64,000 nucleotides of DNA, from the IMG/VR virus record IMGVR_UViG_3300047550_003635; one strand, written 5' to 3'. Both the position numbers and the translations under genes were made by a program. This document shows, in pieces, positions 11,072-60,553 of this stretch; position 1 is the first letter of the stretch; each line of letters begins with the position of its first letter. Origin of the DNA: a virus. Under the pieces are notes generated by a model. It was not told where the DNA came from. It saw only the letters and a program-made list of their open reading frames with translations, and ran no database searches.

Positions 11072-12739
11072 ATGGCAATTAAACTTTTCGGCTTCACGCT
11101 CGGAAAACCAGACGTAACTCAGGTTCAAAACCCTGACCAAAGGTCTTTTGTTCCTCCAACAAGCACGATTGATGATGGTGCTGTTACCATTACTCAAAAT
11201 GCGTATTATGGAACATATGTTGACCTTGAAGGTGCAGTTAGAAATGAAATAGAACTCATTACACGATATCGTGAAATGGCTAATCACCCAGAATTGGAAA
11301 TGGCTATTGATGATATCGTTAATGAAGCTATTTCTCACGATGATACTGGTCGAACAGTAAATCTAGTTCTTGACAAACTAAAACAACCAGAATCAATTAA
11401 AAAGAAAATATTAGAAGAATTTGAAAACATTCTAAAAATGCTGAATTTCAGTAATTTGGCAGATGACCTTTTCAAACGTTGGTATATTGATGGACGAATT
11501 TATTATCATGTTCTTGTTGATGAATCAAATCCAAAATTAGGAATTCAAGAACTTCGTTTTATTGACCCAAGAAAGATTCGTAAAGTTCGTGAAATAAAGA
11601 AAATGCGCGACCCTAAAACTGGCGCTAATATTATTGAATCGATGGCAGAATACTATGTTTACAATGATAAGGGTCAACCAACACAAACATATACCAGTAA
11701 TATCAATGCTGGTTTAAGAATTGCACCAGAATCCATCATCAATGTCAATTCAGGATTGATGGACGCTAAAAACACTTTTGTAATTTCATATCTTCATAAA
11801 GCAATTAAGCCACTCAATCAACTTCGTATGATTGAAGATGCTGTTGTTATTTACCGTTTATCACGCGCACCAGAACGTCGTATATTTTATATTGACGTAG
11901 GTAATTTACCAAAAGGTAAAGCTGAACAATACTTGCGTGATATCATGATTAAGTATAAAAATAAAATGGTTTATGATGCAAATACTGGTGAATTACGCGA
12001 TGACCGTAAACATATGTCAATGCTTGAGGATTTTTGGTTGCCTCGTCGTGAAGGTGGTAAAGGAACTGAAATTACTACTTTACCCGCAGGTCAAAATCTT
12101 GGTGAAATGGAAGATGTCAAATATTTCCGTCAAAAACTTTTAAATTCATTGAACGTTCCAATTTCACGTTTGGAACAACAACAAGGTGGTATGATTGGTG
12201 TTGGTAGAACTGCCGAAGTTACCCGTGATGAAGTTAAATTTACCAAATTCATTATGAGATTGCGTAATAAATTCTCACAAATTTTCGACAATGCATTACG
12301 AATACAACTCGTATTGAAAGGTATTTGCACCTCAGAAGAATGGGATGAATTTAAAGAAAGTATTTACTATGATTATATTCGTGATAATCACTTTACAGAA
12401 TTAAGAGATACTGAATTATTACGCGAAAGAATCTCAACACTAAATGTAGTTGACCCATATATTGGAAGATTCTATTCTGCAAATTGGGTTAAAAGAAATG
12501 TTCTAAGATTCTCAACAGAAGAAATAGAACAGATGCAAAAAGAAAACGAAGAAGAAGAAAAACAAGGTATTGGTGGACCAACTCAAATGATGCTTCAACA
12601 GCAACAAGAAAATCAACAAATGCAACAACAATATCCACCAGAAGATAATACTCAAGATGATAGTGATTCACAAGAAACAAAAACGCCACAGTTAGATGCA
12701 CAAGTAATTAACTACTCTAACAGACTAAATAGAAAATAA
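11072..12739 (+). CDS. gp20: Portal protein
   Basis: RAPERRIFYIDVGNLPK, EDFWLPRREGGKGTEITTLP. Confidence 0.95.
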   Translation: MAIKLFGFTLGKPDVTQVQNPDQRSFVPPTSTIDDGAVTITQNAYYGTYVDLEGAVRNEIELITRYREMANHPELEMAIDDIVNEAISHDDTGRTVNLVLDKLKQPESIKKKILEEFENILKMLNFSNLADDLFKRWYIDGRIYYHVLVDESNPKLGIQELRFIDPRKIRKVREIKKMRDPKTGANIIESMAEYYVYNDKGQPTQTYTSNINAGLRIAPESIINVNSGLMDAKNTFVISYLHKAIKPLNQLRMIEDAVVIYRLSRAPERRIFYIDVGNLPKGKAEQYLRDIMIKYKNKMVYDANTGELRDDRKHMSMLEDFWLPRREGGKGTEITTLPAGQNLGEMEDVKYFRQKLLNSLNVPISRLEQQQGGMIGVGRTAEVTRDEVKFTKFIMRLRNKFSQIFDNALRIQLVLKGICTSEEWDEFKESIYYDYIRDNHFTELRDTELLRERISTLNVVDPYIGRFYSANWVKRNVLRFSTEEIEQMQKENEEEEKQGIGGPTQMMLQQQQENQQMQQQYPPEDNTQDDSDSQETKTPQLDAQVINYSNRLNRK

Positions 12740-12750
12740 TTGGAGATAAT

Positions 12751-12954
12751 ATGGATATTGGTCAATTTTTAAATAATGTTGCAGCAGGAAATGCAAACGA
12801 TGCTAAAGAAAATATAAATGATATTCTTTCTGCAAAAGCATTTGAAGCATTAGATGCACAGAAAGAAGAATTAGCAAAAACAATGTTCAATCATAATGAA
12901 CAAGAATTGGAAAATACTAACGAAGTTGAAACGGAATCAGATACAGAACAATAA
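12751..12954 (+). CDS. Prohead core protein, gp67-like
   Basis: Small acidic protein directly after portal. Confidence 0.55.
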   Translation: MDIGQFLNNVAAGNANDAKENINDILSAKAFEALDAQKEELAKTMFNHNEQELENTNEVETESDTEQ

Positions 12955-13595
12955 TGAAACTATTAAAAGAATTTAAAAATTCAAATAAATTAGAAGAAAA
13001 AGTTGTTGATATAACAACATCTGATTTTAAAATTGAACCATCGGGAAGAAAAGCTAGAGCCCATAGATTTAAAGTTGGTGAAAAGCCATCTATTAATGCT
13101 AATGTAGCAAATACTATGGCAACAACGGCTACTTCTCCTAATATGTCAAATTTCAATCAAAGTTATCCTATCACTGAAGTTTTGGCTAATGCTGAACCTG
13201 ACCCGCCTTATGTTTTATTGTTGAAAAGAACAGCAATTAGACTTTATCCAAATGAGATGAGAGTTGCTTTATATTACAATAAACAATTAGATAAACATTT
13301 TTCTGTTCCTTATGGTTTAAAAGGTTCAGCGGGTGTTATACAAGCAGAAGAAATTGAGCCGATTGAAGAATCTGTGATGGACCAATTACATAAAATTGTC
13401 GATAACAAGTCAGCACAAAGAGTTAAATTTGCATCAGGAGAAACGAGAAAAGTTGACCATTTTACGGCTTCGGCTATTACTCAAGTTCACAAAGCACTGA
13501 ATGATGAAAATAAAAAGAAATTTTCAGATATGGTGCACAAATCTCCACAACATTTAATGAAAGCTGCCGATTTTGCTTTTAAACATGTCAAATGA
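12954..13595 (+). CDS. Hypothetical head-cluster protein, modular with L/I-x-E linkers
   Basis: Coupled ORF between gp67-like and gp68-like genes; KLEE, ITE, EEIEPIEE segments. Confidence 0.6.
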   Translation: MKLLKEFKNSNKLEEKVVDITTSDFKIEPSGRKARAHRFKVGEKPSINANVANTMATTATSPNMSNFNQSYPITEVLANAEPDPPYVLLLKRTAIRLYPNEMRVALYYNKQLDKHFSVPYGLKGSAGVIQAEEIEPIEESVMDQLHKIVDNKSAQRVKFASGETRKVDHFTASAITQVHKALNDENKKKFSDMVHKSPQHLMKAADFAFKHVK

Positions 13596-14026
13596 ACTTT
13601 TTAAAATTAATAACAGAAAATAAACTTGATGAAGCAAAGCAAAAATTATTTGAAAAGTTGGAACTTAAAATTGTTGAGAAGTTGATTGAATTAAAAAAAG
13701 ATATTGTTGACATGACATATAATTTGGACGAAGCAGTTAAACGAAATCCAAATATAGTGAAGATGGGAAGAATCACAAGAATTAGAAGAAGAATTAGAAG
13801 AAATGCTAAGGGTCAAATTGTTATTCAAAGAAACAGAAAAAGAAGTAATATAAAAGGATATAGAATACAAGGTTCTTCGATAAGACGAATATCAGCAGTT
13901 GATAGATTGCATAAAGCAAGATTGCTCAAACGTTCTTGGAGAACAACTAGAAAAGGTAAACTTCGCCGTTCATTGATGAGAAGAACCATGTCAATGCGTA
14001 GGCGTCAATCAATGGGAATAAGATAA
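13592..14026 (+). CDS. gp68: Prohead core protein, gp68-like
   Basis: Acidic N-half, LDE site, then very Arg-rich tail ending RRRQSMGIR; position. Confidence 0.65.
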   Translation: MNFLKLITENKLDEAKQKLFEKLELKIVEKLIELKKDIVDMTYNLDEAVKRNPNIVKMGRITRIRRRIRRNAKGQIVIQRNRKRSNIKGYRIQGSSIRRISAVDRLHKARLLKRSWRTTRKGKLRRSLMRRTMSMRRRQSMGIR

Positions 14027-14027
14027 A

Positions 14028-14375
14028 ATGTCATTCGAAATTATAAACTCAGTTAGAACACCTTCGATTATTAATATCGTTAATCCTGGAACAACAACGA
14101 TTTTCTTGGCTAATCTTTCAGCTAATGCTAATGAAACCGTTAATTATGCCAATATCAGAAAATTAAATTGGTCAACAAACGGTAATATTACTATTACAAG
14201 AAATTCAGTTCCAATCATTACGCTTCACAATGCTGGTGAATTGCGTTGTGATGATTTTGGATTTAGTTTTGCAAATAATAATACTCAAAGTATTGTCGTA
14301 ACAATCAATACAGGTGGTTCTTTGGTCATGGAAGTAACAAAAGATTGTAACTATGCAACTGCTCTTATAGGATAA
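14028..14375 (+). CDS. Hypothetical beta-rich probable virion protein
   Basis: Coupled ORF before gp21; Asn/Thr-rich. Confidence 0.6.
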   Translation: MSFEIINSVRTPSIINIVNPGTTTIFLANLSANANETVNYANIRKLNWSTNGNITITRNSVPIITLHNAGELRCDDFGFSFANNNTQSIVVTINTGGSLVMEVTKDCNYATALIG

Positions 14376-14379
14376 TTCC

Positions 14380-15030
14380 ATGAAATTAATACGAGAACAT
14401 ATTGAATCAGTAAAACATATTACCGAAGCGACAGAAAACGGTAAAAAACACATGTATATTGAAGGAACTTTTCTTGTTGGAGATAGAGTAAACAAGAATA
14501 ATCGCATGTATCGTATGGATACTTTGCGTAATGAAGTCACTCGGTATACAAAAGAATTGATTGAAACAAATCGTGCTTTAGGTGAATTGGGTCATCCAGA
14601 CACACCTAGTATTAATTTGGACCGCGCATGTATTAGAATTGTTTCTCTCAAAGAAAATGACAATACTTTTACAGGTAAAGCACTGATTCTTGATACTCCA
14701 AACGGTAATATTGTTAAAAATTTACTTGATGGCGGTGTTAATTTGGGTGTTTCATCAAGAGCATTAGGTTCTGTTTCTATGACCAAAGAAGGATATAATT
14801 TGGTACAAGATGACCTAAGACTTGCAACTGCCGCTGATGTTGTTGCTGACCCGTCTGCACCAGGCGCATTTGTAAACGGAATAATGGAAAACAAAGAGTG
14901 GATGATGATTGATGGTAAATTTGTCGAAGAAGATTTTGATAATTATAAAAGAATTATTAAGAGTGCGCCTAAATCACAAATCGAACAAACAGCATTAAAA
15001 CTCTTTGAAAACTATTTACGAAAACTTTGA
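14380..15030 (+). CDS. gp21: Prohead protease
   Basis: ALGELGHP, GVSSRALGS, DVVADPSAPGAFV. Confidence 0.95.
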   Translation: MKLIREHIESVKHITEATENGKKHMYIEGTFLVGDRVNKNNRMYRMDTLRNEVTRYTKELIETNRALGELGHPDTPSINLDRACIRIVSLKENDNTFTGKALILDTPNGNIVKNLLDGGVNLGVSSRALGSVSMTKEGYNLVQDDLRLATAADVVADPSAPGAFVNGIMENKEWMMIDGKFVEEDFDNYKRIIKSAPKSQIEQTALKLFENYLRKL

Positions 15031-15034
15031 AATT

Positions 15035-15042
15035 TATAAATA
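15035..15042 (+). promoter_or_regulatory. T4 late promoter TATAAATA (gp22/gp23)
   Basis: Exact consensus in intergenic gap. Confidence 0.8.
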
Positions 15043-15064
15043 AGAAATCATAAGGAGAAATCTA

Positions 15065-16153
15065 ATGGCAACAAATAAACTTATGGAAGCTGCGGCAGAT
15101 ATTCTTTCTCAAAGCAAGAAAGCTGCTCCTGCTATGCCCATGCAAAAACCCGAAGATTCTACTTCAGTAGATTTGGGTGGTCCAAAACAAGATGTAGGTT
15201 CAAATAAAGTTGCAACATCGATTGATGATATCTACAATCATTATAAGATGGATGCAGCAAAAGCAGCTAAAAGTGCTACTGCACCAACAACCAAACCATC
15301 AAATGCTTCACCTGATAAACAAGATACTTTGAAAAAAGTATCAGAAGAAGAAGAAATTGATGATGAAGTAATTGCAGAAGAAGAAGTTTCAGAAGAACAA
15401 GAAAATATTGTTGAAGCATGGAAAAAGAAAATGAAAGAAGATGTTGATGCATTGTTCTCAGATGATTCAACAATTTCTGAAGATTTCAAATCCAAAGCAG
15501 CAACAATTTTTGAAGCACGTGTTACAGACCGTGTTCAACAAATCGAAGAAGAAATTGATGCCAAATATGCTGAAATGTTAGAAGAAGCTGTTGGTGCAAT
15601 TCAAGCAGATTTAACTGAAAAAGTTGACGATTATCTTAACTACGTTGTTGAACAATGGATGGAAGAAAATCAAATTGCAATCGAATCATCACTACGCTCA
15701 GAATTGACCGAAGAATTTATTGGTGGATTACGTGACTTATTTGTTGAACATTATATCGATGTTCCAGAAGATAAAGTTGATTTGGTTGACGAATTGGCTG
15801 GTCAAGTTGAAGAACTAGAAACCAAGTTGAATGAAGAAATTGAACGTGGTATCGAAATTAGAAAACAACTAATTGAATCAGTCAAAACAGAAATTACTTA
15901 TGAAGTTTGCGATGGTTTAACCGATACTCAAGTTGAAAAAATCAAATCACTTGCAGAAAGTGTTGAATTCTCCACAGAGGACGAATACAGAACAAAACTT
16001 GAAACTATCCGTGAAAACTATTTCCCATCAGGTGTTAAAAAAGCTGATGAACAACAACTTCATGAGGAAATTGAAACCGACGAGAAAGTAGTTGCAACCG
16101 ACGCTTTCGTTGCCGCTGTTTCAAAAGCAATAACAAGAACAACAGTAAAATAA
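15065..16153 (+). CDS. gp22: Prohead scaffolding/core protein
   Basis: Acidic coiled coil; FKSKAATIFEA, VDDYLNYVVEQW; synteny. Confidence 0.9.
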   Translation: MATNKLMEAAADILSQSKKAAPAMPMQKPEDSTSVDLGGPKQDVGSNKVATSIDDIYNHYKMDAAKAAKSATAPTTKPSNASPDKQDTLKKVSEEEEIDDEVIAEEEVSEEQENIVEAWKKKMKEDVDALFSDDSTISEDFKSKAATIFEARVTDRVQQIEEEIDAKYAEMLEEAVGAIQADLTEKVDDYLNYVVEQWMEENQIAIESSLRSELTEEFIGGLRDLFVEHYIDVPEDKVDLVDELAGQVEELETKLNEEIERGIEIRKQLIESVKTEITYEVCDGLTDTQVEKIKSLAESVEFSTEDEYRTKLETIRENYFPSGVKKADEQQLHEEIETDEKVVATDAFVAAVSKAITRTTVK

Positions 16154-16173
16154 TAATTTAGGAGAAAATAAAC

Positions 16174-17496
16174 ATGTATTTGTCCGAATCACTACAAAAA
16201 AAATGGGAATCAGTTCTAGACCATCCAGAACTCCCAAAAATTTCTGACCCATATCGTAAAGCAGTTACAGCAGTTGTATTGGAAAACCAAGCTGCTGAAA
16301 TGATTAAATCAGGTCAGATGTTGCAAGAAGCTACTCCAGCAAACGCTGCCGGCACAGGTGGTTTTGGTGGTGGTGCAGCAGCAGGCGGTCCAGTTGCTGG
16401 TTTTGACCCAATTCTAATCAGCTTGGTTCGTCGTTCATTGCCAAATCTTATCGCTTATGACATCTGCGGCGTTCAGCCAATGACTGGTCCTACCGGTTTG
16501 ATTTTTGCAATGCGTTCAACCTATGGCACAGCAAACGTAACTGCTGGCGCAGCAGAAACATTCTACAACGAAGTTAATACTGGCTTTGGTGGTATTGCTG
16601 GTGCACAACAAGCATTGACTGTTGGTTCTGCCGCAGCTAACACTTTCGTTGCTAACGCAGCAGCTTGCACAGCAATGACAACTGCAACAGCAGAAAACTT
16701 GACTTTCAACGAAATGGCATTCAGCATTGAGAAAGTTACTGTAACTGCTGGTACACGTGCATTGAAAGCTGAATACTCAATCGAACTTGCACAAGACTTG
16801 AAAGCAGTTCATGGTCTTGACGCAGAAACCGAATTGGCAAACATTCTTTCAGCAGAAATTCTTTCTGAAATTAACCGTGAAGTTGTTCGCACAATTTACG
16901 GTACCGCAGTAACTGGTTGCCAAACTGGTACAACAACTGCTGGTAAGTTTGACTTGGATACCGATTCAAACGGTCGTTGGATGGTTGAGAAAATCAAAGG
17001 TCTTGCATTCCAACTAGAACGTGAAGCTAATGCAATTGCAAAAACCACTCGTCGTGGTAAAGGTAACATTGTAATTTGCTCAAGCGATGTTGCTTCTGCA
17101 TTTGCAATGGCTGGATTGCTTGACTATAATTCAGCATTGAAAGACCAAGTTAACCTAACCGTTGACGATACTGGTAACACTTTTGCTGGTACCATGTTCG
17201 GTCGTATCAAAGTTTATATCGACCCATTTTCAACCACAAATGCATCGCAAGAATTTGCAGTTGTTGGTTACAAAGGAACAAACGCTTATGACGCAGGTCT
17301 TTTCTACTGCCCATACGTTCCTCTACAAATGGTTCGTGCAGTTGATACAACCAACTTCCAACCAAAGATTGGCTTCAAGACTCGTTACGGTCTAGTTGCA
17401 AATCCATTCGCTCAAGGTACCACAGCAGGTCTTGGTGCATTGAACGTATTGAGCAATTACTACTATCGCGCATTCAAAATTGCGAATATTATGTAA
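16174..17496 (+). CDS. gp23: Major capsid protein
   Basis: DICGVQPMTGPTGLIFAMR, ELAQDLKAVHGLDAE, FQPKIGFKTRYG. Confidence 0.97.
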   Translation: MYLSESLQKKWESVLDHPELPKISDPYRKAVTAVVLENQAAEMIKSGQMLQEATPANAAGTGGFGGGAAAGGPVAGFDPILISLVRRSLPNLIAYDICGVQPMTGPTGLIFAMRSTYGTANVTAGAAETFYNEVNTGFGGIAGAQQALTVGSAAANTFVANAAACTAMTTATAENLTFNEMAFSIEKVTVTAGTRALKAEYSIELAQDLKAVHGLDAETELANILSAEILSEINREVVRTIYGTAVTGCQTGTTTAGKFDLDTDSNGRWMVEKIKGLAFQLEREANAIAKTTRRGKGNIVICSSDVASAFAMAGLLDYNSALKDQVNLTVDDTGNTFAGTMFGRIKVYIDPFSTTNASQEFAVVGYKGTNAYDAGLFYCPYVPLQMVRAVDTTNFQPKIGFKTRYGLVANPFAQGTTAGLGALNVLSNYYYRAFKIANIM

Positions 17497-50403: not shown

Positions 50404-52818
50404 ATGAATTTTATAGACTTTTTGCAAGAAAAAGAAGAAAAACACGGTGTCCTAGCTTTTGGACGAATGAATCCACCCACAACTGGTCATGAAAAGCTAG
50501 TCAATAAAGTCAAAGATGTTGCAAAAGAGCATAACGCATCCCATCATATCGTAGTTTCCCACACTCAAGATAAAAAGAAAAATCCTCTAACAGCAGAACA
50601 AAAGCAGAAACACGCTAAAAGATTCTTTCCTGGTGCAAATATTACTACTGCCAGCAAAGAAGAACCTACAATCCTTCACCATGCTGCAAGACTACACAAA
50701 CAAGGTATTACCCATCTTCATGTAGTTGGTGGTTCAGATAGAACTGAAGAATATCATAAACTTTTACAACAATATAATGGTGTTAAAAGTGGACATGGTC
50801 ATTATAATTTCAAAAAAATAACAGTCCATTCATCAGGTGAACGTGACCCTGATGCCGAAGGAACAGAAGGTATGTCAGCATCCAAAATGCGTAAACATGC
50901 ATCCGAAAACAATTATAAAGAATTCAAAAAAGGTGTTCCAAAACACGTTTCTGATGAACATGCAAGAGAACTATTCCATGATGTCCGTAAAGGTATGCAA
51001 GTAAAAGAATCAGAAGATATTAATGATTCATTTGAAATGTTGATGGAAGGTGTTCATGACCAAGGTATCTTCAAAGCAGTATTTCTTGCAGGTGGACCAG
51101 GTTCAGGCAAAGATTATGTCATGAATAAAACATTGGATGGTCATGGCTTGACTGAAATCAATTCAGACAAAGCACTTGAATATCTGATGGACAAACATAA
51201 TCTGAATAAAAAAATGCCCAAGAAGGAAGAAGAACAAAGAAATATCATTCGTGGTCGTGCAAAGAATATGACAGAACTTCGTCAAAGATTAGCTATTGAA
51301 GGTCGTAATGGACTGATTATCAATGGCACTGGTGAAGATTTAGATAAAGTAAAAAAAATTAAAAGTGAACTTGAGAAAATTGGTTATGGTTCTAAGATGG
51401 TAATGGTTCATTCAAGCGATGAAGTATCAAAGCAAAGAAATATCGCACGTGGTAAACGTGGTGGTAGAACAATACCTGAAAAGATTCGGAAAGAAAAATG
51501 GCAAGGCGCACAAAATAATCGTTCTGAATTTGCGAAAATGTTCGGCAACGATTATCATGAATATGACAATTCACATGATGCAATGACTGCACATCCTACA
51601 ATTCGTGCAGCAAAGGAACAAGAACTTCTTGATTTACATAAACATGTCAAAGATTTTGTTGCGAACCCAACAGACAATGAAAAAGCACAAAAATGGATTG
51701 CTGGTGAATTACAGAAAAAAGATACAGAACCAGTAAAGAGAAGTGGTGCCGAAAGAACGCCCCACCCAGATTCACAAGCAGCAAAAGAAGCATCTGAAAA
51801 AGGTCTCAAATTTTATGGTCATGGTCGTTATGGACAAAAAGGGCAAGTTACGCATCGTGCAATACAAGATAAACTTGTCGAGATACCAAAAGAAAAACCA
51901 CAACAACCAAAAGTTCCAACACAAGGTTCAAGTTATTCACATACATCAACACCATTAACACCAAAACAAAAGAAAAAATTGAAAACTATACAAAAACAAA
52001 GTAAGTTACCAAAAGATATCAAAAAAGTTAATGAAGAATTTGAAGAATTTTTATCAGAACAAATTTCAATAACGATTTCTGGTGATACACCCGAAGAAGT
52101 TAAAAGTGCATTAAAATTATTAAAGAATACAGAATCGGATGTTGATGAATCATATTCATTATCTGATGTGGATGCAATGTCAGTTCTTACTTTAGGTAAA
52201 GGTCTGATGAAAGAAGAAAATGAAAATTATATTAAAGATATGAGTGGTAAACCAAGAATTTTCCATCTTCGAACATCTGCTGCAAAAGAAGCGCATCAGA
52301 AAAATGGCACAATTGTTCCACATCCAAGTGGAAAAGGTTATATTGTTAAAATAAAGGAGAAGCAAAATGTTCAAGAAGCTATGGGAATTTCTAACACAAC
52401 CAGTAATCAAGGAAACAAAACCAGTGGAAGTAAAACAGGAAGTTCAAGAACCAATTCCAACACAACAGATACCAGAAGCGACGGAATTGCCAGTTCAGCC
52501 ATTGGAGAGCAATTTACCAGTAACAGAACCAGTAAAAAAATCACGCTCAAAGAAATCAGGGAAAAACAGAAAACAGTGATTGAGTCTATAGACCAAGGCA
52601 TTGAGCCAGGACTTTCAATGGCAGGTGCTGGAGAAAGTCCTGCGCGTGACACAGGTGAAAAAATAGACAAAAAGAAATTTGGTAAAGCATCACAAGTTGC
52701 TGAAACAATTGGTGCTGGTGGAGAAGATGCTTCGTCAATGAGCGATTTCAATCAAGAAACATTGAAGCAAAAAGGCATTAATCTAAAAACATTTAAATCT
52801 AAAAAGTTTGTAGGATAA
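50404..52818 (+). CDS. Multidomain protein: TxGH nucleotidyltransferase + P-loop (Zeta/PNK-like) kinase + low-complexity modules
   Basis: MNFIDFLQE; FGRMNPPTTGHEKL, GSDR, MSASKMR; LME linker; FLAGGPGSGKD; ACTAAATA at 50366. Confidence 0.8.
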   Translation: MNFIDFLQEKEEKHGVLAFGRMNPPTTGHEKLVNKVKDVAKEHNASHHIVVSHTQDKKKNPLTAEQKQKHAKRFFPGANITTASKEEPTILHHAARLHKQGITHLHVVGGSDRTEEYHKLLQQYNGVKSGHGHYNFKKITVHSSGERDPDAEGTEGMSASKMRKHASENNYKEFKKGVPKHVSDEHARELFHDVRKGMQVKESEDINDSFEMLMEGVHDQGIFKAVFLAGGPGSGKDYVMNKTLDGHGLTEINSDKALEYLMDKHNLNKKMPKKEEEQRNIIRGRAKNMTELRQRLAIEGRNGLIINGTGEDLDKVKKIKSELEKIGYGSKMVMVHSSDEVSKQRNIARGKRGGRTIPEKIRKEKWQGAQNNRSEFAKMFGNDYHEYDNSHDAMTAHPTIRAAKEQELLDLHKHVKDFVANPTDNEKAQKWIAGELQKKDTEPVKRSGAERTPHPDSQAAKEASEKGLKFYGHGRYGQKGQVTHRAIQDKLVEIPKEKPQQPKVPTQGSSYSHTSTPLTPKQKKKLKTIQKQSKLPKDIKKVNEEFEEFLSEQISITISGDTPEEVKSALKLLKNTESDVDESYSLSDVDAMSVLTLGKGLMKEENENYIKDMSGKPRIFHLRTSAAKEAHQKNGTIVPHPSGKGYIVKIKEKQNVQEAMGISNTTSNQGNKTSGSKTGSSRTNSNTTDTRSDGIASSAIGEQFTSNRTSKKITLKEIREKQKTVIESIDQGIEPGLSMAGAGESPARDTGEKIDKKKFGKASQVAETIGAGGEDASSMSDFNQETLKQKGINLKTFKSKKFVG
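52367..52579 (+). CDS. Nested out-of-frame small protein
   Basis: AAGGAG SD 7 nt before ATG; amphipathic N-terminus, P/E linker, basic tail. Confidence 0.55.
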   Translation: MFKKLWEFLTQPVIKETKPVEVKQEVQEPIPTQQIPEATELPVQPLESNLPVTEPVKKSRSKKSGKNRKQ

Positions 52819-52823
52819 TAAAA

Positions 52824-53855
52824 ATGAAAACATTCAAATCATTTATTGTTGAAGGTCGACCATCACAACAACATGCATTAGAAGGTCACGATTATCATAA
52901 AAAAACAGATAATGAATTGCGTTATGTCATGAAAGATGCAGGAGAAGCTGCAAAAGCGATGCGTGGACACAATGAAAAAGCTGAAAACAAATATATGGAC
53001 CAAGTGAATGATGCATCAACTGTTTTATATTTTAGAAAAACTCATGGTATGCCCGATTGGTATAAAAAGAAATATGGTCATATAAAAGAAGAAGTAGAAC
53101 AGATTGATGAACTTTCTGTTAAAAAATATTCTGAAGTATATAAAGTAGCATCGAAAAAAGATGGACAGAAACATATAGATGCACAACGTCGTGCATATAT
53201 GGCAGTAAAAAGAAAAGCAAAAGAAACATCAGAAAGAATGTATGAATCGTCCGATAAAGGACTTGCTGCTGCTCATTCTAAAGCAAAAGAAATAAGCAAA
53301 AGAGAAGGTGTTGTCCAGCATATTGAAAAAGACCCTAAAACTGGCCAACATACAGTTAGTGATTGGTATGATTCGGATAGAACTGTTGCAACATATAATA
53401 ACGGGAAACTAAGAGAAGATGTTGACCATATAGCAGAAGGTTCTAGTGCATCGAAATACAAAGTAAAAAGTATTGGTACCGACAAAAACGGTGATTACTA
53501 TATCAGTCCAAATACAGGCAAAAAAGTATATAAAAAAGTCAAAGTTGGCTCACATGAAACTCCAAGTGGTGAAATAAAAGAAAGTGCTGCATGGCAACGC
53601 TCAGAAGGTAAAAATCCAGAAGGTGGTTTGAATCGCAAAGGTATTGAATCTTATCGTCGTGAACATCCTGGTTCAAAACTATCAATGGCAGTTACAACAA
53701 AACCTTCTAAATTGAAAAAAGGTTCTAAGGCTGCAAAACGCCGTAAGTCATTTTGCGCTAGGATGTCTGGCATGAAGCGTAGATTGACTTCTGCAAAGAC
53801 TGCAAATGACCCAAATAGCCGTATTAACAAATCATTGAGAAAATGGAATTGCTAA
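52824..53855 (+). CDS. Modular internal-head-type protein with CTS-like N-terminus and basic C-terminal domain
   Basis: MKTFKSFIVE; IKEEVEQIDE, HIAE, IKE linkers; AAWQRSEGKNPEGGLN...RRKSFCARM...LRKWNC. Confidence 0.75.
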   Translation: MKTFKSFIVEGRPSQQHALEGHDYHKKTDNELRYVMKDAGEAAKAMRGHNEKAENKYMDQVNDASTVLYFRKTHGMPDWYKKKYGHIKEEVEQIDELSVKKYSEVYKVASKKDGQKHIDAQRRAYMAVKRKAKETSERMYESSDKGLAAAHSKAKEISKREGVVQHIEKDPKTGQHTVSDWYDSDRTVATYNNGKLREDVDHIAEGSSASKYKVKSIGTDKNGDYYISPNTGKKVYKKVKVGSHETPSGEIKESAAWQRSEGKNPEGGLNRKGIESYRREHPGSKLSMAVTTKPSKLKKGSKAAKRRKSFCARMSGMKRRLTSAKTANDPNSRINKSLRKWNC

Positions 53856-56800
53856 GTGGCACAATTTAGAACTGACTTAAAAAAGATAGATTCAGGACAA
53901 GTATTTACTCGGTATGAAGTGAATATGTTTTCTGACCGTCTTACACCATCTGGTACTATGACAGATGCGTTTGGTCGTTTGCGTATTGTAAATCCTTTTA
54001 CTTTGTTTGAAAGCACACATCGTTTTTCTGATAATGGGTTATGGGCAACATCAAATACAGCAGGAAATAGTTCATATACTTTTGTTGAAAACCAAAGTTT
54101 AATTGAGATGACTGTTGGTACAACCGCAAATGCTGAAGTTGCCCGAGAAACGACAAAAGTTATGTCTTATCAACCAGGTAAATCATTGTTGATAATGAGC
54201 ACCTTTGTTATGAATCAACCTAAACAAAATGTTCGTCAAAGAGTAGGTTATTTTGGTCGTGATAATGGCATTTTTTTTGAAAATGATGGCACAACAAATT
54301 ATTTTGTATTGAGAAGTAACACATCCGGAACAATTACCGAAACAAGAACTGCACAAACGGATTGGAATGTAGATAAATTTGATGGAACAGGTTACTCAAC
54401 ACAAAGTGGTGGCACAGAACACGCTTCCGGTATTGATGTGAGTAAATCAAATATTTTTTGGACGGATGTTGAATGGTTGGGTGTTGGTGATGTTCGTTGT
54501 GGTTTTGTAATTGATGGTAAAATGATACCTGCACACATATTCCACAACGATAATAAAAATATAGCTCCTTACATGACAACGGCTTCTTTGCCATTAAGAT
54601 ATGAAATAAAGAATACAGGAATTACAACAAGCAATTCAACATTAAAACAAATATGTTCAACAGTCATTTCTGAGGGTGGTTATGAACTATATGGTACTCA
54701 GCAAGCTATTCAGACAACAATTGGGTCCCCTGTTAATTTACCAACGTCTGGAACATATTATCCAGTTATTTCATTGAGATTAAAATCAAATCGTTTAGAA
54801 GCAATCGTAATTCTTACTGCACTATCAATTTTAGGTATTACAAATAACTCAGTTTATAATTGGCAAGTAAGGTCAAGTGCTAACACTTCTGGAGGTGGGA
54901 CTTGGACAGATGCTGGCACTAACTCTGCTGTTGAATATAAAATTGATGGTGGTTCAGTCACTGGCGGACGAATATTAGCATCAGGTTTTACTGGTGCAAC
55001 AGTTAGTGCGACGCCAGTTGATATTCTTAAAGAAGCATTATTCAAATTTCAATTAGAAAGAAACAGTTTTACCAACACTCCATATGAACTAACATTATGT
55101 GCCTCTGCTACCTTAAACGGTTCAGACATTTATGCATCAATGGATTGGGAAGAAATAACAAGATAACTTTTATTAATAAAGGAAAAAAACTATGTTTTCA
55201 GATAAAAAAACAAAAAGTGTAGCAGATGCAGTAGCTAAAATTATGAGCGAAGAACTAAAAGGTATGCAACACAAAATTGATGTTGCAGAACCAAAAGGTA
55301 AATTGACCGGTGCAGATTTCAAAAAACTTCGTTCTATGAAAAAAGAAGAAGCTGAACAAATTAATGAATTGAGTAGTAATACATTAAAAAATTATCAAGC
55401 TAAGAATATGGAAGCTGGTCAAATAGCAATGATTAGAGGTGATAAAAAAACTCTAGCAAAACGCACAGCAGGAAAACATGCTGTAGAAAAGAAACTCGCG
55501 GGATTACAGGGTGAAGAAGTTGAAAATCTTGATGAAGTCAAACTAGCAGATTTGCCAAAACGCACTGTTAAAGGTAAATCTTATGGTGCAGATTATGAGG
55601 ACCCAGAAGGAAAAGACGATGCTGATGAAAAACCAGCAGAACCAGTAAAACGCGGTCGTGGACGTCCAAAAGGAACTTTCAAACGTCGTTTCAATACCAA
55701 ATTGTATAAAGAATCGTTCACTGAAATGATGCAAAATTTGGACCAAAGAGGTCTTGATTTTGTTTCAGAAATGCTTGTTGTTGAAGAACCAACAAATGAC
55801 GAATATACTGCCGAAGTAAAAGATGCACAAGAAAAATCAGAAGGCAAAGGTAAAAAAGCAGAAGTTGCAAAACCAGCAGTTCAAGCTGTCAAGAATGAAG
55901 AAGTTGAACAGATTCTTGAAGGTAAAATGGATAAAATGTCACTTTCACATTTATGGAATTCTCATGCAGAGCATTCATATATGGCAGACCAAGGTTATGG
56001 TCATGGTGGTGCTAATCCAAATTTAAATCATCACGCAGCTACCGCAATTGAAAATCATGTTCGCAAACATTATGGAAATAAAGTGGCTGATGATATGGTA
56101 TCACATTCTGACCATCATGTGATTGCAGGCGAATATGCTGGACCAGATGATGCAGATTATCATGAAAAAGAAATGGAAAAATTGAAAAAGAAACATAATA
56201 TAAAAGAAGAGGTTGAACAGATTGATGAAGAAATTTTAAATGAAGTATCATTACAAACTAAAATAAAAGCATATGCTCAACATTCAAATGCCGCTTATGA
56301 AGCAGGTGATTATGGTAATGAAGATGATGAAGAAAAACATACAAAAAAAGCAGATAAACTATATGCTCACATTTTAAAACATCATGGACCTGAAGCTGCT
56401 GCACATGCTGAAAAAGCTGCTAATTCCGCTACATTTGGTACAGAAAAAAGTCGTAATCGTGGAAATGATAAACTTTCTGGTGGATTGCGTAAACACTTAT
56501 CAACACAAGTAACAAAATCAGGAAAAATCCCCAAATCAACACAAAAAGCAATGAAGAACGTTAGTTCAAGAATCACTGGTCCAAAAGGAAAATTACCAGA
56601 AGAAGTTGAACAGATTTTTGAAGGCAGAATCATTGGCCGTCGTGCAAGTAATTATCATAAAGAAACTGATTATTCTATGCCCAGACATCTAAGTATGTAT
56701 AATTATAGTCTAAAAGATTTACATCATGGACATGCATTTCACTCTTATGTCCGTGATGCAGAAGAACCTAAATATGGTGGTGGTCCACACGGCGCTGCTG

Positions 56801-57036
56801 CCGATACAGTGCATCGCATAGAAAAACATGTTCATGATGAATATGGACCAGAAGCAGCTAAACAGTTACATCATTCCGGCGGCGCCCGCGGCGGACCTGA
56901 TGGTGATGATGAAAATTATGAAAAAACTAAAAAATTAGCCCAAGCACATTACAAAAAATTGAAAGATGAAGAAAAAGTATTCACTAAGGCACCTATACAA
57001 AAAACGAAAAATGAAGAAGTTGAACAAATTGATGAA
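53088..57036 (+). repeat. Dispersed coding repeat GAAGAAGTTGAACAGATT(GATGAA), i.e. EEVEQI(DE)
   Basis: At least 7 degenerate copies in the 52824 and 55192 ORFs; looser variants in the 57183 ORF. Confidence 0.8.
53856..55166 (+). CDS. Beta-rich putative virion structural protein (GTG start)
   Basis: DAFGRLR, YQPGKS, EWLGVGDVRCGF, LPLRYEI; Thr/Ser/Gly-rich. Confidence 0.65.
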   Translation: MAQFRTDLKKIDSGQVFTRYEVNMFSDRLTPSGTMTDAFGRLRIVNPFTLFESTHRFSDNGLWATSNTAGNSSYTFVENQSLIEMTVGTTANAEVARETTKVMSYQPGKSLLIMSTFVMNQPKQNVRQRVGYFGRDNGIFFENDGTTNYFVLRSNTSGTITETRTAQTDWNVDKFDGTGYSTQSGGTEHASGIDVSKSNIFWTDVEWLGVGDVRCGFVIDGKMIPAHIFHNDNKNIAPYMTTASLPLRYEIKNTGITTSNSTLKQICSTVISEGGYELYGTQQAIQTTIGSPVNLPTSGTYYPVISLRLKSNRLEAIVILTALSILGITNNSVYNWQVRSSANTSGGGTWTDAGTNSAVEYKIDGGSVTGGRILASGFTGATVSATPVDILKEALFKFQLERNSFTNTPYELTLCASATLNGSDIYASMDWEEITR

Positions 57037-57186
57037 CGTCATTTAACATCAGCAGAAACCAAAAAGAAAGAGGAAGTTGTTAAAAGCATGAAGAAGAAAC
57101 TTTCTGGTTTCCGTGAACGTTATGGCAAACGTGCAAAAGAAGTGATGTATGCGACCGCTACCAAAGTTGCTAAAGGTAGCAAATGA
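55192..57186 (+). CDS. His/Lys-rich modular protein with six EE(V/A)E(Q/N)(I/L)xE linkers
   Basis: Linkers near 55345, 55513, 55897, 56205, 56599, 57013; AT-hook-like KRGRGRPK; paralogous modules. Confidence 0.75.
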   Translation: MFSDKKTKSVADAVAKIMSEELKGMQHKIDVAEPKGKLTGADFKKLRSMKKEEAEQINELSSNTLKNYQAKNMEAGQIAMIRGDKKTLAKRTAGKHAVEKKLAGLQGEEVENLDEVKLADLPKRTVKGKSYGADYEDPEGKDDADEKPAEPVKRGRGRPKGTFKRRFNTKLYKESFTEMMQNLDQRGLDFVSEMLVVEEPTNDEYTAEVKDAQEKSEGKGKKAEVAKPAVQAVKNEEVEQILEGKMDKMSLSHLWNSHAEHSYMADQGYGHGGANPNLNHHAATAIENHVRKHYGNKVADDMVSHSDHHVIAGEYAGPDDADYHEKEMEKLKKKHNIKEEVEQIDEEILNEVSLQTKIKAYAQHSNAAYEAGDYGNEDDEEKHTKKADKLYAHILKHHGPEAAAHAEKAANSATFGTEKSRNRGNDKLSGGLRKHLSTQVTKSGKIPKSTQKAMKNVSSRITGPKGKLPEEVEQIFEGRIIGRRASNYHKETDYSMPRHLSMYNYSLKDLHHGHAFHSYVRDAEEPKYGGGPHGAAADTVHRIEKHVHDEYGPEAAKQLHHSGGARGGPDGDDENYEKTKKLAQAHYKKLKDEEKVFTKAPIQKTKNEEVEQIDERHLTSAETKKKEEVVKSMKKKLSGFRERYGKRAKEVMYATATKVAKGSK

Positions 57187-58685
57187 GCAGGATAAGAAAA
57201 ATTCTGGAACAACATCGTGAGAAGGGCAGGTTCAAACCTGTTCTTCCACGAATGGTTCAGAATAACCCAGGCGTGTCACCTAGGGACGAATTCTCTCAAA
57301 ATGTTAAATCAAAAAGTAAAATGAAATACGATATTCATCAAGAGGAAAACATAAAAGAAGATTTGCGTAATTGGTTCAATCCTAATCATCCCGAAGGTGG
57401 TTGGAAAAGAATCAATAGTAAAGGTGAGGCAATTGGTCCTTGTGCAAGAGAACCAGGAGAAGCTAAACCTAAATGTATGTCAAATGCTAAACGAGCAAGT
57501 CTTACGAAAGACGAAAGAGCATCGGCAGTTAAAGCAAAAAGAAAACATGACCCTAATCCAGAAAGAAAAGGCAAACCTATAAATGTCTCTAATTATGGAA
57601 AAGGTAAATTAGGAGAAAGTATGGAACAATTAGATGAAAAAAATGCTCCAACAAACCCAAAACTTTGGGCAAGAGCAAAATCACTCGCTAGGTCTAAGTT
57701 TGATGTTTATCCATCAGCTTATGCAAATGGATGGGCAGCAAAATGGTATAAATCTAAAGGTGGTGGTTGGAAAACGATTAGTGAAGAAGTTGAAATTACT
57801 GAAATGGCAGGCGCAAATATGAATACACGCGATATTCATCATCATCTTAAAAAAACTGGTTGGAACTTATCAAGAACTGCCGGTGGACATGATGTATATA
57901 CTCATCCTAAATCAAGTGAACATATTTCAGTTCCACGTCATAAACAGTTAAAAGCACCGCTTGTTTTAGGTATTTTAAAAGCATCAAAAAAGATTCAAGA
58001 AGAAAACATTACTGAATCTGATTTACCAAAAACAACATCAAAAACCGAAAAAGTCGTGACAGTTCGACACAAAACTTCTGGTAAAGAATTATCTGTTGTT
58101 CATACTGCTGTTCCTGAATATGAAAAACGTGGATATGAACAAGTAAAAGAAGAAGTTGATGAGAACCCAATGGAAGTTCCCATTAGTGTTCGTTCATTAT
58201 ATGCAAAGACTTATGGTAAACATGCTAAAACTATAAGACATTCTGATGAAGCAAAACAAAAGGCTTATTCAGAAGTTGAGAAGAAGCATGGAAAAGATAT
58301 GATGAATCGTTTAAAGAATTATCATAATAAAAACATGCAGGAATCAAAAACAGCATCGATTGCACGTGGTATTCTTATGCGTAAACTTGATACAATGAAA
58401 TTAATCAAAGCATCAAAACCTGTGCAACCAAAAATGCCAGCAAATCCAACACCACCATTTACACCTGACCCTCCAAAAAGTAATCTTGGCGTAACTGTTG
58501 GTAAAAGACCTGCTGGTATGTCTGTTGCAAAACATTTGGCTAAAACTGCGATTAGAAATCAAATGAAAACTGAAGCTGTTTCAAAAAAAGCAGATATAGT
58601 TAAAAAAGCTGCTAAAAAAGGTAAAGAAAAGTTTATAGCTGACCCTGTTATTACACAAACTTATGTAAAAACAGAGAATAACTGA
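57183..58685 (+). CDS. Modular protein containing a HicA-like domain and other small basic modules
   Basis: Linkers IKE, MEQLDE, EEVEITE, EENITE, VKEEVDE; HicA-like LKKTGW...GGHDVYTHP...VPRH. Confidence 0.75.
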   Translation: MSRIRKILEQHREKGRFKPVLPRMVQNNPGVSPRDEFSQNVKSKSKMKYDIHQEENIKEDLRNWFNPNHPEGGWKRINSKGEAIGPCAREPGEAKPKCMSNAKRASLTKDERASAVKAKRKHDPNPERKGKPINVSNYGKGKLGESMEQLDEKNAPTNPKLWARAKSLARSKFDVYPSAYANGWAAKWYKSKGGGWKTISEEVEITEMAGANMNTRDIHHHLKKTGWNLSRTAGGHDVYTHPKSSEHISVPRHKQLKAPLVLGILKASKKIQEENITESDLPKTTSKTEKVVTVRHKTSGKELSVVHTAVPEYEKRGYEQVKEEVDENPMEVPISVRSLYAKTYGKHAKTIRHSDEAKQKAYSEVEKKHGKDMMNRLKNYHNKNMQESKTASIARGILMRKLDTMKLIKASKPVQPKMPANPTPPFTPDPPKSNLGVTVGKRPAGMSVAKHLAKTAIRNQMKTEAVSKKADIVKKAAKKGKEKFIADPVITQTYVKTENN

Positions 58686-59706: not shown

Positions 59707-60296
59707 TGTGGATACTGAGTTTTATTCCTTCAGAGTTATTACAAAAAGTAATTCATGGTATTGTAATATTCTCAATTCTTCTTTATGTTGGTGCATATTT
59801 TCTTGTTAGACCCTATTCGGATTTAGCTAAATTTGTTGCAATGGTATTATTAGCAGCAGGTTTATATTTTGAAGGTGGTTATTTTGTTGAAAAACAGTGG
59901 CGTGATAAAGTCGAAGAATATAAACAAAAAGTAAAAGAAGCCGAAGAAAAATCTGAGAAAGTAAATACAGTCATTCAAACTAAGTATGTTGAAAAGATAA
60001 AATATATTGATAGAGTAAAGGAAGGCAATGTTCAAATCGTTGAAAAAATTGTTACAAAGTATGATAATCTTTGCACTTTGTCTAATGCTGCAATCGTGCT
60101 CCACAACAGTGCCAGTCAAAATGTCTTGGCCCCAAGTTCCGGAACCGCTATTGAAGGAACCTCCAATGTTAAAGCCAGTGAACTCATCGGAACAGTCGTT
60201 GACAACTACTCAACCTACTACAAAGTAAAAGAGCAATTAACTGGTTGGCAAGAATGGTATAAAGAACAAAAGAAAATTTATGAGAGTGTAAAATGA
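59706..60296 (+). CDS. Inner-membrane spanin (Rz-like)
   Basis: N-terminal TM helices, coiled coil, single Cys; embedded lipoprotein ORF; near endolysin. Confidence 0.6.
   Translation: MWILSFIPSELLQKVIHGIVIFSILLYVGAYFLVRPYSDLAKFVAMVLLAAGLYFEGGYFVEKQWRDKVEEYKQKVKEAEEKSEKVNTVIQTKYVEKIKYIDRVKEGNVQIVEKIVTKYDNLCTLSNAAIVLHNSASQNVLAPSSGTAIEGTSNVKASELIGTVVDNYSTYYKVKEQLTGWQEWYKEQKKIYESVK
60028..60228 (+). CDS. Embedded outer-membrane lipoprotein spanin (Rz1-like)
   Basis: +1 frame inside the Rz-like gene; signal peptide, LQSC lipobox, Pro-rich mature part. Confidence 0.6.
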   Translation: MFKSLKKLLQSMIIFALCLMLQSCSTTVPVKMSWPQVPEPLLKEPPMLKPVNSSEQSLTTTQPTTK

Positions 60297-60553
60297 AATC
60301 ATTCGGTATTTTTATTCTTGAAGAAAGAGATTCTTTTGAATATCATTTAAATAAATTACATAAAACAGAAAAATCAATTCAAAATCATGTGAAGCGTGGT
60401 GGACATGCGAATACACAAAAGGGATATGAATTGATAGATAGATATGATAATCATCTAAAACAAATAAAACAAAAACATTATGATGATTGGAAATCTCACT
60501 GTAAAACAAAAAATATAGACCCTTTACATAGTGGAATTGATTTATATGCTTAA
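60293..60553 (+). CDS. Small His/Lys-rich protein with CTS-like N-terminus
   Basis: MKSFGIFILEE. Confidence 0.55.
   Translation: MKSFGIFILEERDSFEYHLNKLHKTEKSIQNHVKRGGHANTQKGYELIDRYDNHLKQIKQKHYDDWKSHCKTKNIDPLHSGIDLYA

Follow-up and report, generated by a model that had tools for sequence, protein, structure and literature searches.

Among the closest described systems are the internal proteins of T-even phages, whose turnover has been tied to conflict with host defences (PMC3012670). In the capsid-targeting leader of T4, residues 4 and 7 serve targeting and residues 8 and 10 serve processing (PMC9026906), and the leaders of the internal proteins IPII and IPIII both read MKTYQEFIAE. The T4 prohead protease gp21 cuts after (I/L)-x-E and cleaves the internal protein Alt at ITE-6 and LTE-619 (PMC5694885). 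Here, we describe three open reading frames (ORFs B, D and E; Table 1) in a 64,000-nucleotide stretch of DNA (the window) from the IMG/VR virus record IMGVR_UViG_3300047550_003635, each of which encodes a chain of modules separated by acidic linkers that end in the same motif. Packaging of these proteins into the prohead, followed by proteolytic release of their modules, is the best reading of the sequence and a likely one; that the released modules are injected and act as effectors is possible, with chances somewhat short of even. The 133-kb record (completeness ~76%, guanine plus cytosine content ~32%) represents an uncultured marine T4-like myovirus, the gp23 major capsid protein of which is ~60% identical to its counterparts in cyanophages, Pelagibacter phage HTVC008M and Methylophilales phage Melnitz.

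The linker is an octapeptide of the EEVEQIDE type that occurs in eight copies across ORFs B, D and E. The initial annotation had reported three ORFs with such linkers, the first starting with MKTFKSFIVE, and all of these elements were confirmed. When the motif was relaxed, nine copies were found in the six reading frames of the 133-kb genome: the same eight, and EEIEPIEE in a core-region protein encoded next to the protease gene. ORF D contains six strict linkers, compared with 0.011 expected from residue shuffles (the expected numbers for ORFs B and E are 0.001 and 0.003, respectively), and over-representation of E-x-[IL]-x-E was highest in D (z 8.3), E (z 5.7) and the scaffold protein gp22 (z 3.0). 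A consensus built from 202 distinct sites in relatives reads K-E-E-V-E-Q-[IVL]-[DE]-E, followed by G, L, R or A. The linker ends in (I/L)-x-E, the cutting rule of T4 gp21, and the proposed match between the linkers and a gp21-type enzyme is supported by the presence of the gene for such a protease in the genome. The encoded protein is 37% identical to T4 gp21, and its His, Ser and Asp catalytic motifs align. The gene lies in a head module (11072-17496) that comprises the portal, a gp67-like ORF, two core-region proteins, the protease, the scaffold gp22 and gp23. In gp23 itself, MLQE immediately precedes the Gly-rich start of the mature protein, which is also the region of the LTE cut in T4. 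Comparison of the linker with the T4 leader revealed a common processing half (Glu at P5, a hydrophobic residue at P3 and Glu at P1) and no aromatic targeting residues in the linker, which argues for a cutting site and not a targeting element.

A second (I/L)xE was observed six or seven residues upstream of the linker (e.g. IKE followed by EVEQIDE) at 8 of the 13 junctions in ORFs B, D and E, including 53078-53111, 56196-56229, 56589-56622, 57605-57638, 57773-57803 and 57989-58016, so that an acidic hexa- or heptapeptide could be excised there as a separate piece.

The mosaic structure of metagenomic relatives provides a second line of evidence. More than 740 metagenomic proteins related to ORF D are close to it in length and a further 661 are shorter; they cover it partially and with high identity. 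When the seven D modules were used as references and mapped onto these relatives, D1 was usually N-terminal and D7 usually C-terminal, while the content between them was variable and permuted. The commonest short relative has the order D1-D3-D7 (71 of 120), and ORF D therefore looks like a D1-D3-D7 core into which D2, D4, D5 and D6 were inserted at linkers. Among the internal ends of high-scoring segment pairs (HSPs), 140 of 163 on the 3' side and 143 of 191 on the 5' side lay no more than 12 residues from a linker, compared with 30% expected. Moreover, at 111 of the 116 distinct module starts a triplet [ILVMF]xE ends no more than two residues from the start, even at junctions with a degenerate EEVEQ part, and the Glu before the start of D4 is at least 90% conserved. 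Sixty-two further metagenome loci, many of them from lakes, showed the same pattern: [ILVMF]xE stands directly before all 20 distinct starts of D7-type modules. A single near relative (P0139) illustrates the exchange. It is 97% identical to residues 179-241 of D and 94% identical to residues 613-664, yet ~100 unrelated residues stand in place of D4-D6 (372 residues), with each of the two breakpoints inside a linker. HSP ends, module starts and the breakpoints of this relative all place module boundaries at the linkers, as had been predicted; boundaries elsewhere had been named beforehand as the outcome that would speak against the idea.

Members of the module family and their linkers were also seen in many lake metagenome contigs (L012-L073, e.g. 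L052) and in one contig of 351 kb, which indicates that the system is restricted neither to marine phages nor to genomes of 130-180 kb. In one marine contig (L036:741-4062), which may be a chimeric assembly, phage polyprotein genes are linked to a bacterial ClpB-like gene; the contig also contains a 61-amino-acid gene, possibly a stand-alone D7 behind a leader ending in IQE, the start of which is ambiguous and which was not used as evidence.

Leaders and fusion partners point to the head as the location of these proteins. The ORF B leader, MKTFKSFIVE, matches those of IPII and IPIII at positions 1-3, 7, 8 and 10 and has Phe for Tyr at position 4. As a capsid-targeting leader of the T4 type, it keeps targeting positions 4 and 7 and processing positions 8 and 10. 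Leaders similar to the T4 type are also present in ORF A and in the ORF at 60293, and ORF A homologues in related contigs start with MKFREFIAE and MKFSQFFQE. The gene order is preserved in related viral contigs, which also carry leaders of this type (e.g. MKFREFIAE and MKTFKEFITE). Cultured cyanophage RN05-S encodes a cytidylyltransferase with a T4-type leader and, downstream of it, a protein in which V-Q-E stands before a D7-type module, and in DSL-LC02 a D7-type module stands behind a leader ending in L-Q-E.

Homologues of D7, E1, E2a and the DUF6321 module of B occur in another order in the T4-GC119 proteins of cyanophages S-BM3, Syn19 and S-SM1. Thirteen peptides of the S-SM1 member, SSM1_115, were identified in purified virions (Sullivan et al. 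2010, Table S8). With tblastn, ORF D had no match in cultured phages; among the modules, only those of E and B and the D7 module match cyanophages. In seven metagenomic proteins, D4 lies behind a gp67-like prohead-core domain (phrog_1064, E-values 1e-4 to 3e-3; T4 gp67 scores 1.7e-30 on the same profile), to which it is joined by V-E-E-L-T-E. The gp67-like ORF at 12751-12954 of the phage studied here is the counterpart of the N-terminal domain that carries D4 in these other phages.

The modules were only partly as first described. ORF D is indeed divided into modules of 49-138 residues, within the announced range of about 40-140 residues. However, ORFs B and E contain stretches of up to 222 residues unless weaker (I/L/V)xE sites are also used, and module isoelectric points range from 5.3 to 10.4, so that a basic character is not universal. 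Similarly, the three paralogous modules claimed for ORF D reduce to one clear pair, D4 and D6 (blastp 7e-11), to which D5 is weakly similar. D4 and D6 are His-rich four-helix bundles. An AlphaFold2 model of D4 alone is a compact four-helix bundle (predicted local distance difference test (pLDDT) 82, predicted template modelling score 0.72) with an unstructured linker tail (pLDDT below 50), and 39 homologues of the module show 64-74% identity and share nine conserved His residues, a conservation that suggests a specific activity. The model of full-length ORF D is all-helical with a mean pLDDT of 64.7, and four of its six linkers fall in low-confidence segments. Foldseek searches with the full D model and the D4 model returned generic helical-bundle matches only, with E-values near 1 or above; a sequence search of the PDB gave a chance-level polyubiquitin match only, and the ESM Atlas contained no usable match for D4.

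The structures nearest to D4 (55921-56205) were Rap2a, Rap2b and Tai4, which are immunity proteins of type VI secretion systems (Z 6.3-7.1). This likeness to Rap2a and Tai4 (VIA, best Z 7.1) lies below the level that is meaningful for helical bundles and was set aside as a lead only. D1 (55192-55344) is EF-hand-like in three relatives (P0034, P0071 and P0126), with precomputed or weak PF13499 matches and a D-x-N-x-N loop in the consensus, and the EF-hand-like segment is degenerate in the phage studied here. An AT-hook-like stretch, KRGRGRPKG, was observed in D3 (55648-55674), and a similar stretch is kept in relatives; its sequence hints at DNA binding.

A module of ORF E matches HicA (PF07927): the isolated module scores 38.8 bits and the search of the genome gave 38.3 bits, both above the curated cut-off of 27. 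No cognate HicB was found with PF15919, the one HicB model searched, in the 133-kb record, which is ~76% complete. The other annotated modules are DUF6321 in ORF B and a weak DUF5872-like piece in ORF E. The HicA module is thus the only one with an effector-like annotation and the remaining modules are orphan helical domains, so that the initial suggestion of a set of effectors inhibiting host defences was not upheld in general. Effector or anti-defence roles are plausible by analogy with the T-even internal proteins. The HicA RNase, the AT-hook-like stretch and the conserved-His four-helix bundles may serve as leads to what the modules do.

These observations are best joined in the following mechanism. 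ORFs B, D and E, and probably A, would encode precursors of capsid-internal proteins that are made late and taken into the prohead core, B by means of its T4-type N-terminal targeting leader, and D and E through conserved end modules or by association. Inside the prohead, the gp21-type serine protease would cut after the Glu of each (I/L/V)-x-E that ends an acidic linker and would free single modules of ~50-140 residues, which would stay with the DNA and then be ejected into the host. Because cutting would depend only on the short linker, neither loading nor release would suffer when modules are gained, lost or swapped at linkers, and this dependence would account for the mosaic relatives.

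Several points weigh against packaging and release of the modules. The evidence from this uncultured phage consists of sequence only, ORFs D and E have no T4-type leader that would account for their entry into the head, and two of the six linkers in the full ORF D model lie inside continuous helices. Homologue sets were gathered by shared words that include the linker, which inflates the linker frequency in these sets (to a lesser degree, this bias also touches the junction test on degenerate linkers), and binomial P values for the HSP ends are overstated because the homologues are related. T4-GC119 was not detected in a second proteome despite an annotated gene (Sullivan et al. 2010, Table S8), and the gp67-like assignment of the D4 fusions has weak E-values. 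If cleavage, which is predicted here, does not occur, B, D and E would be uncut multi-domain virion or polyvalent proteins and the octapeptide a flexible spacer or a repeated contact with the scaffold or the capsid interior. The linkers modelled as helix agree with such a role, and phage polyvalent proteins are often delivered whole or processed by a peptidase domain of their own (PMC5512222). Nevertheless, a spacer would have no need for an exact hydrophobic P3 and Glu P1 at module starts, yet these persist there when the remainder of the motif is degenerate. In addition, the aromatic residues by which the T4 leader is directed to the core are missing from the linker, and the same motif recurs in the core protein beside the protease gene; proteins that stay uncut are thus quite improbable. 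A linker conserved chiefly for its DNA, which would offer recombination a short patch of homology and play no part in proteolysis, is less credible still and hardly to be expected. Breakpoints do fall in linkers and some copies share up to 18 identical bases, and the initial annotation had proposed that the linker, conserved at the DNA level, acts as a recombination joint. However, linker DNA is ~81% identical among copies, GAA makes up 90% of Glu codons, and the conserved peptide together with this codon bias accounts for the identity, leaving no conservation of the DNA beyond the peptide. Copies differ synonymously (CAA/CAG, GTT/GTA and GAA/GAG) in a manner that matches genome codon usage, and distant relatives keep the peptide rule and not the codons. 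Microhomology may still aid swapping as a by-product, which is compatible with packaging and proteolytic release.

The proteins could also be packaged and cut while their modules are components of the core or scaffold or counter-ions for DNA, and not injected effectors. Such modules would help to build the prohead or neutralise the packed DNA, and would then be degraded, expelled or inert. In favour of this, most modules are small orphan helical domains without an enzyme signature, the D1-D3-D7 relative is simple and conserved like a structural gene, D3 carries the AT-hook-like stretch, D4 is found fused to a gp67-like core protein, and the T4 core proteins gp22, gp67 and gp68 are also cut into pieces (PMC5694885). 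We nevertheless regard a purely structural role as unlikely, although it is clearly more probable than either of the explanations above: one module is a HicA toxin domain above the Pfam cut-off, ORF A contains enzymes, near-identical relatives exchange cassettes rapidly, in a manner reminiscent of how T-even internal proteins turn over (PMC3012670), and the identity and nine His residues of D4 are better matched by a specific activity.

Table 1. Coordinates of the linker-containing genes, their parts and associated genes in the window (aa, amino acids)
Feature	Position	Strand	Details
gp67-like prohead core protein	12751..12954	+	67 aa, too short for the default ORF lists; between portal and core-region protein; phrog_683 at 2.9e-7
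Prohead-core-region protein	12954..13595	+	EEIEPIEE motif at 13347-13370; adjoins protease gene
gp21-type prohead protease (Peptidase_S77)	14380..15030	+	presumed processing enzyme; PF03420 at 2.5e-34
ORF A	50404..52818	+	804 aa; cytidylyltransferase and Zeta-toxin-like P-loop kinase (domain matches); leader MNFIDFLQE
ORF B	52824..53855	+	343 aa
ORF B, leader	52824-52853
ORF B, strict linker	53088-53111		aa 89-96
ORF B, relaxed linker	53415-53438		EDVDHIAE
ORF B, IKE site	ends at 53582
ORF B, DUF6321 domain	53607-53846		aa 262-341
ORF C	53856..55166	+	436 aa; virion structural protein (phrog_1645); between polyprotein genes; no linkers
ORF D	55192..57186	+	664 aa; seven modules, D1-D7
ORF D, strict linker 1	55345-55368		aa 52-59
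ORF D, strict linker 2	55513-55536		aa 108-115
ORF D, strict linker 3	55897-55920		aa 236-243
ORF D, strict linker 4	56206-56229		aa 339-346
ORF D, strict linker 5	56599-56622		aa 470-477
ORF D, strict linker 6	57013-57036		aa 608-615
ORF E	57183..58685	+	500 aa; start overlaps ORF D stop (ATGA)
ORF E, strict linker	57615-57638		aa 145-152
ORF E, shorter I-T-E linker	57783-57803		EEVEITE; aa 201-207
ORF E, HicA domain	57828-57983		aa 216-267; between the two I-T-E linkers
ORF E, shorter I-T-E linker	57999-58016		EENITE; aa 273-278
His-rich protein	60293..60553	+	86 aa; leader MKSFGIFILE

ORFs A-E are tightly packed downstream of CTAAATA, a late-promoter-like sequence ~30 nucleotides upstream of ORF A. 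The N-terminus of ORF E, MSRIRKILE, ends in I-L-E. From its sequence, the small His-rich protein downstream of these genes looks like a stand-alone internal protein. Further T4-type leaders were observed: MKSFGIFILE of this protein (60293-60553), MINFKTFLIE (44433), MNFLKLITE (13592) and MTLWNDFLIE (~61.7 kb upstream of the start of the window). Judged by these leaders, a wider set of proteins is probably targeted to the head of the phage. The late-promoter core ATAAATA is strongly depleted in the window (positions 1-64000), with 11 copies compared with 37.5 expected from shuffles, and its copies on the + strand lie mostly directly upstream of genes (10448, 15036, 17562, 43594 and 58690). This depletion fits selection against stray late promoters.

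Beyond this phage, the locus may represent a general plug-in cargo system of aquatic T4-like phages, a tentative extension that we would not rate as probable. In such a system, a small domain of any kind would be loaded into the prohead, released by the head protease and injected with the DNA, provided that it is flanked by two linkers and follows a core-binding leader or end module, so that one gene would provide a changeable set of early-acting proteins, among them the HicA RNase and the conserved-His bundles, and new cargo would be acquired by cassette exchange at the linkers. If the predicted cuts are real, the polyprotein strategy would account for the many small internal proteins that marine and lake T4-like phages carry and for their quick exchange, and would open a function-blind route to a large number of candidate injected proteins. 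Leader plus linker would then be a simple rule for finding such proteins in metagenomes, and the arrangement would be a natural multi-cargo version of the T4 packaging tag for engineering.

Four known systems can be compared with the one proposed here. The locus resembles the T-even internal proteins IPI, IPII, IPIII and Alt in the gp21-type protease gene, in residues 4, 7, 8 and 10 of the ORF B leader, in the predicted (I/L)xE cuts and in a variable, fast-changing cargo behind a constant signal. However, each internal protein of T4 is encoded singly and is cut once, near its N-terminus (Alt is cut near its C-terminus as well), whereas here up to seven modules share a polypeptide, internal sites are repeated in a conserved acidic octapeptide and two of the three proteins lack a leader. 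None of the Pfam or PHROG families matched by B, D and E is annotated as an internal protein, a result from family profiles, with no direct comparison with IPI, IPII or IPIII having been run. The likeness to polyvalent proteins (Iyer et al. 2017, PMC5512222) lies in the many unrelated domains per polypeptide, seen in the modules of B, D and E, in the position beside virion genes, in the proposed delivery with the DNA and in the Zeta-toxin-like kinase of the neighbouring ORF A. In contrast to their embedded peptidase (MPTase) or whole delivery, release in trans by the prohead protease at linkers is proposed here. Pfam searches of A, B, D and E gave no match to an MPTase or to hallmark domains such as MuF and ArdC-N, the kinase in ORF A being the only such link. 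The inner-body and ejection proteins of phiKZ, 201phi2-1 and SPN3US are likewise cut after Glu by a gp21-related protease, sometimes at several sites in one substrate, but their extra sites lie in removed propeptides and the substrates are not exchangeable modules with one conserved linker. Cyanophage T4-GC119 (SSM1_115 and Syn19_101) shows true homology in the four modules it has in common with the locus (D7, E1, E2a and DUF6321). It differs in module order and combination and in its more degenerate junctions, and the only descriptions of it are those of a hypothetical or structural protein within a mobile cassette. A literature search of incomplete coverage returned no paper that contains the linker string or describes polyproteins processed by a prohead protease. 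Polyproteins are otherwise typical of RNA viruses; if the cuts predicted here are real, tailed phages use a polyprotein strategy for the cargo of their capsids.

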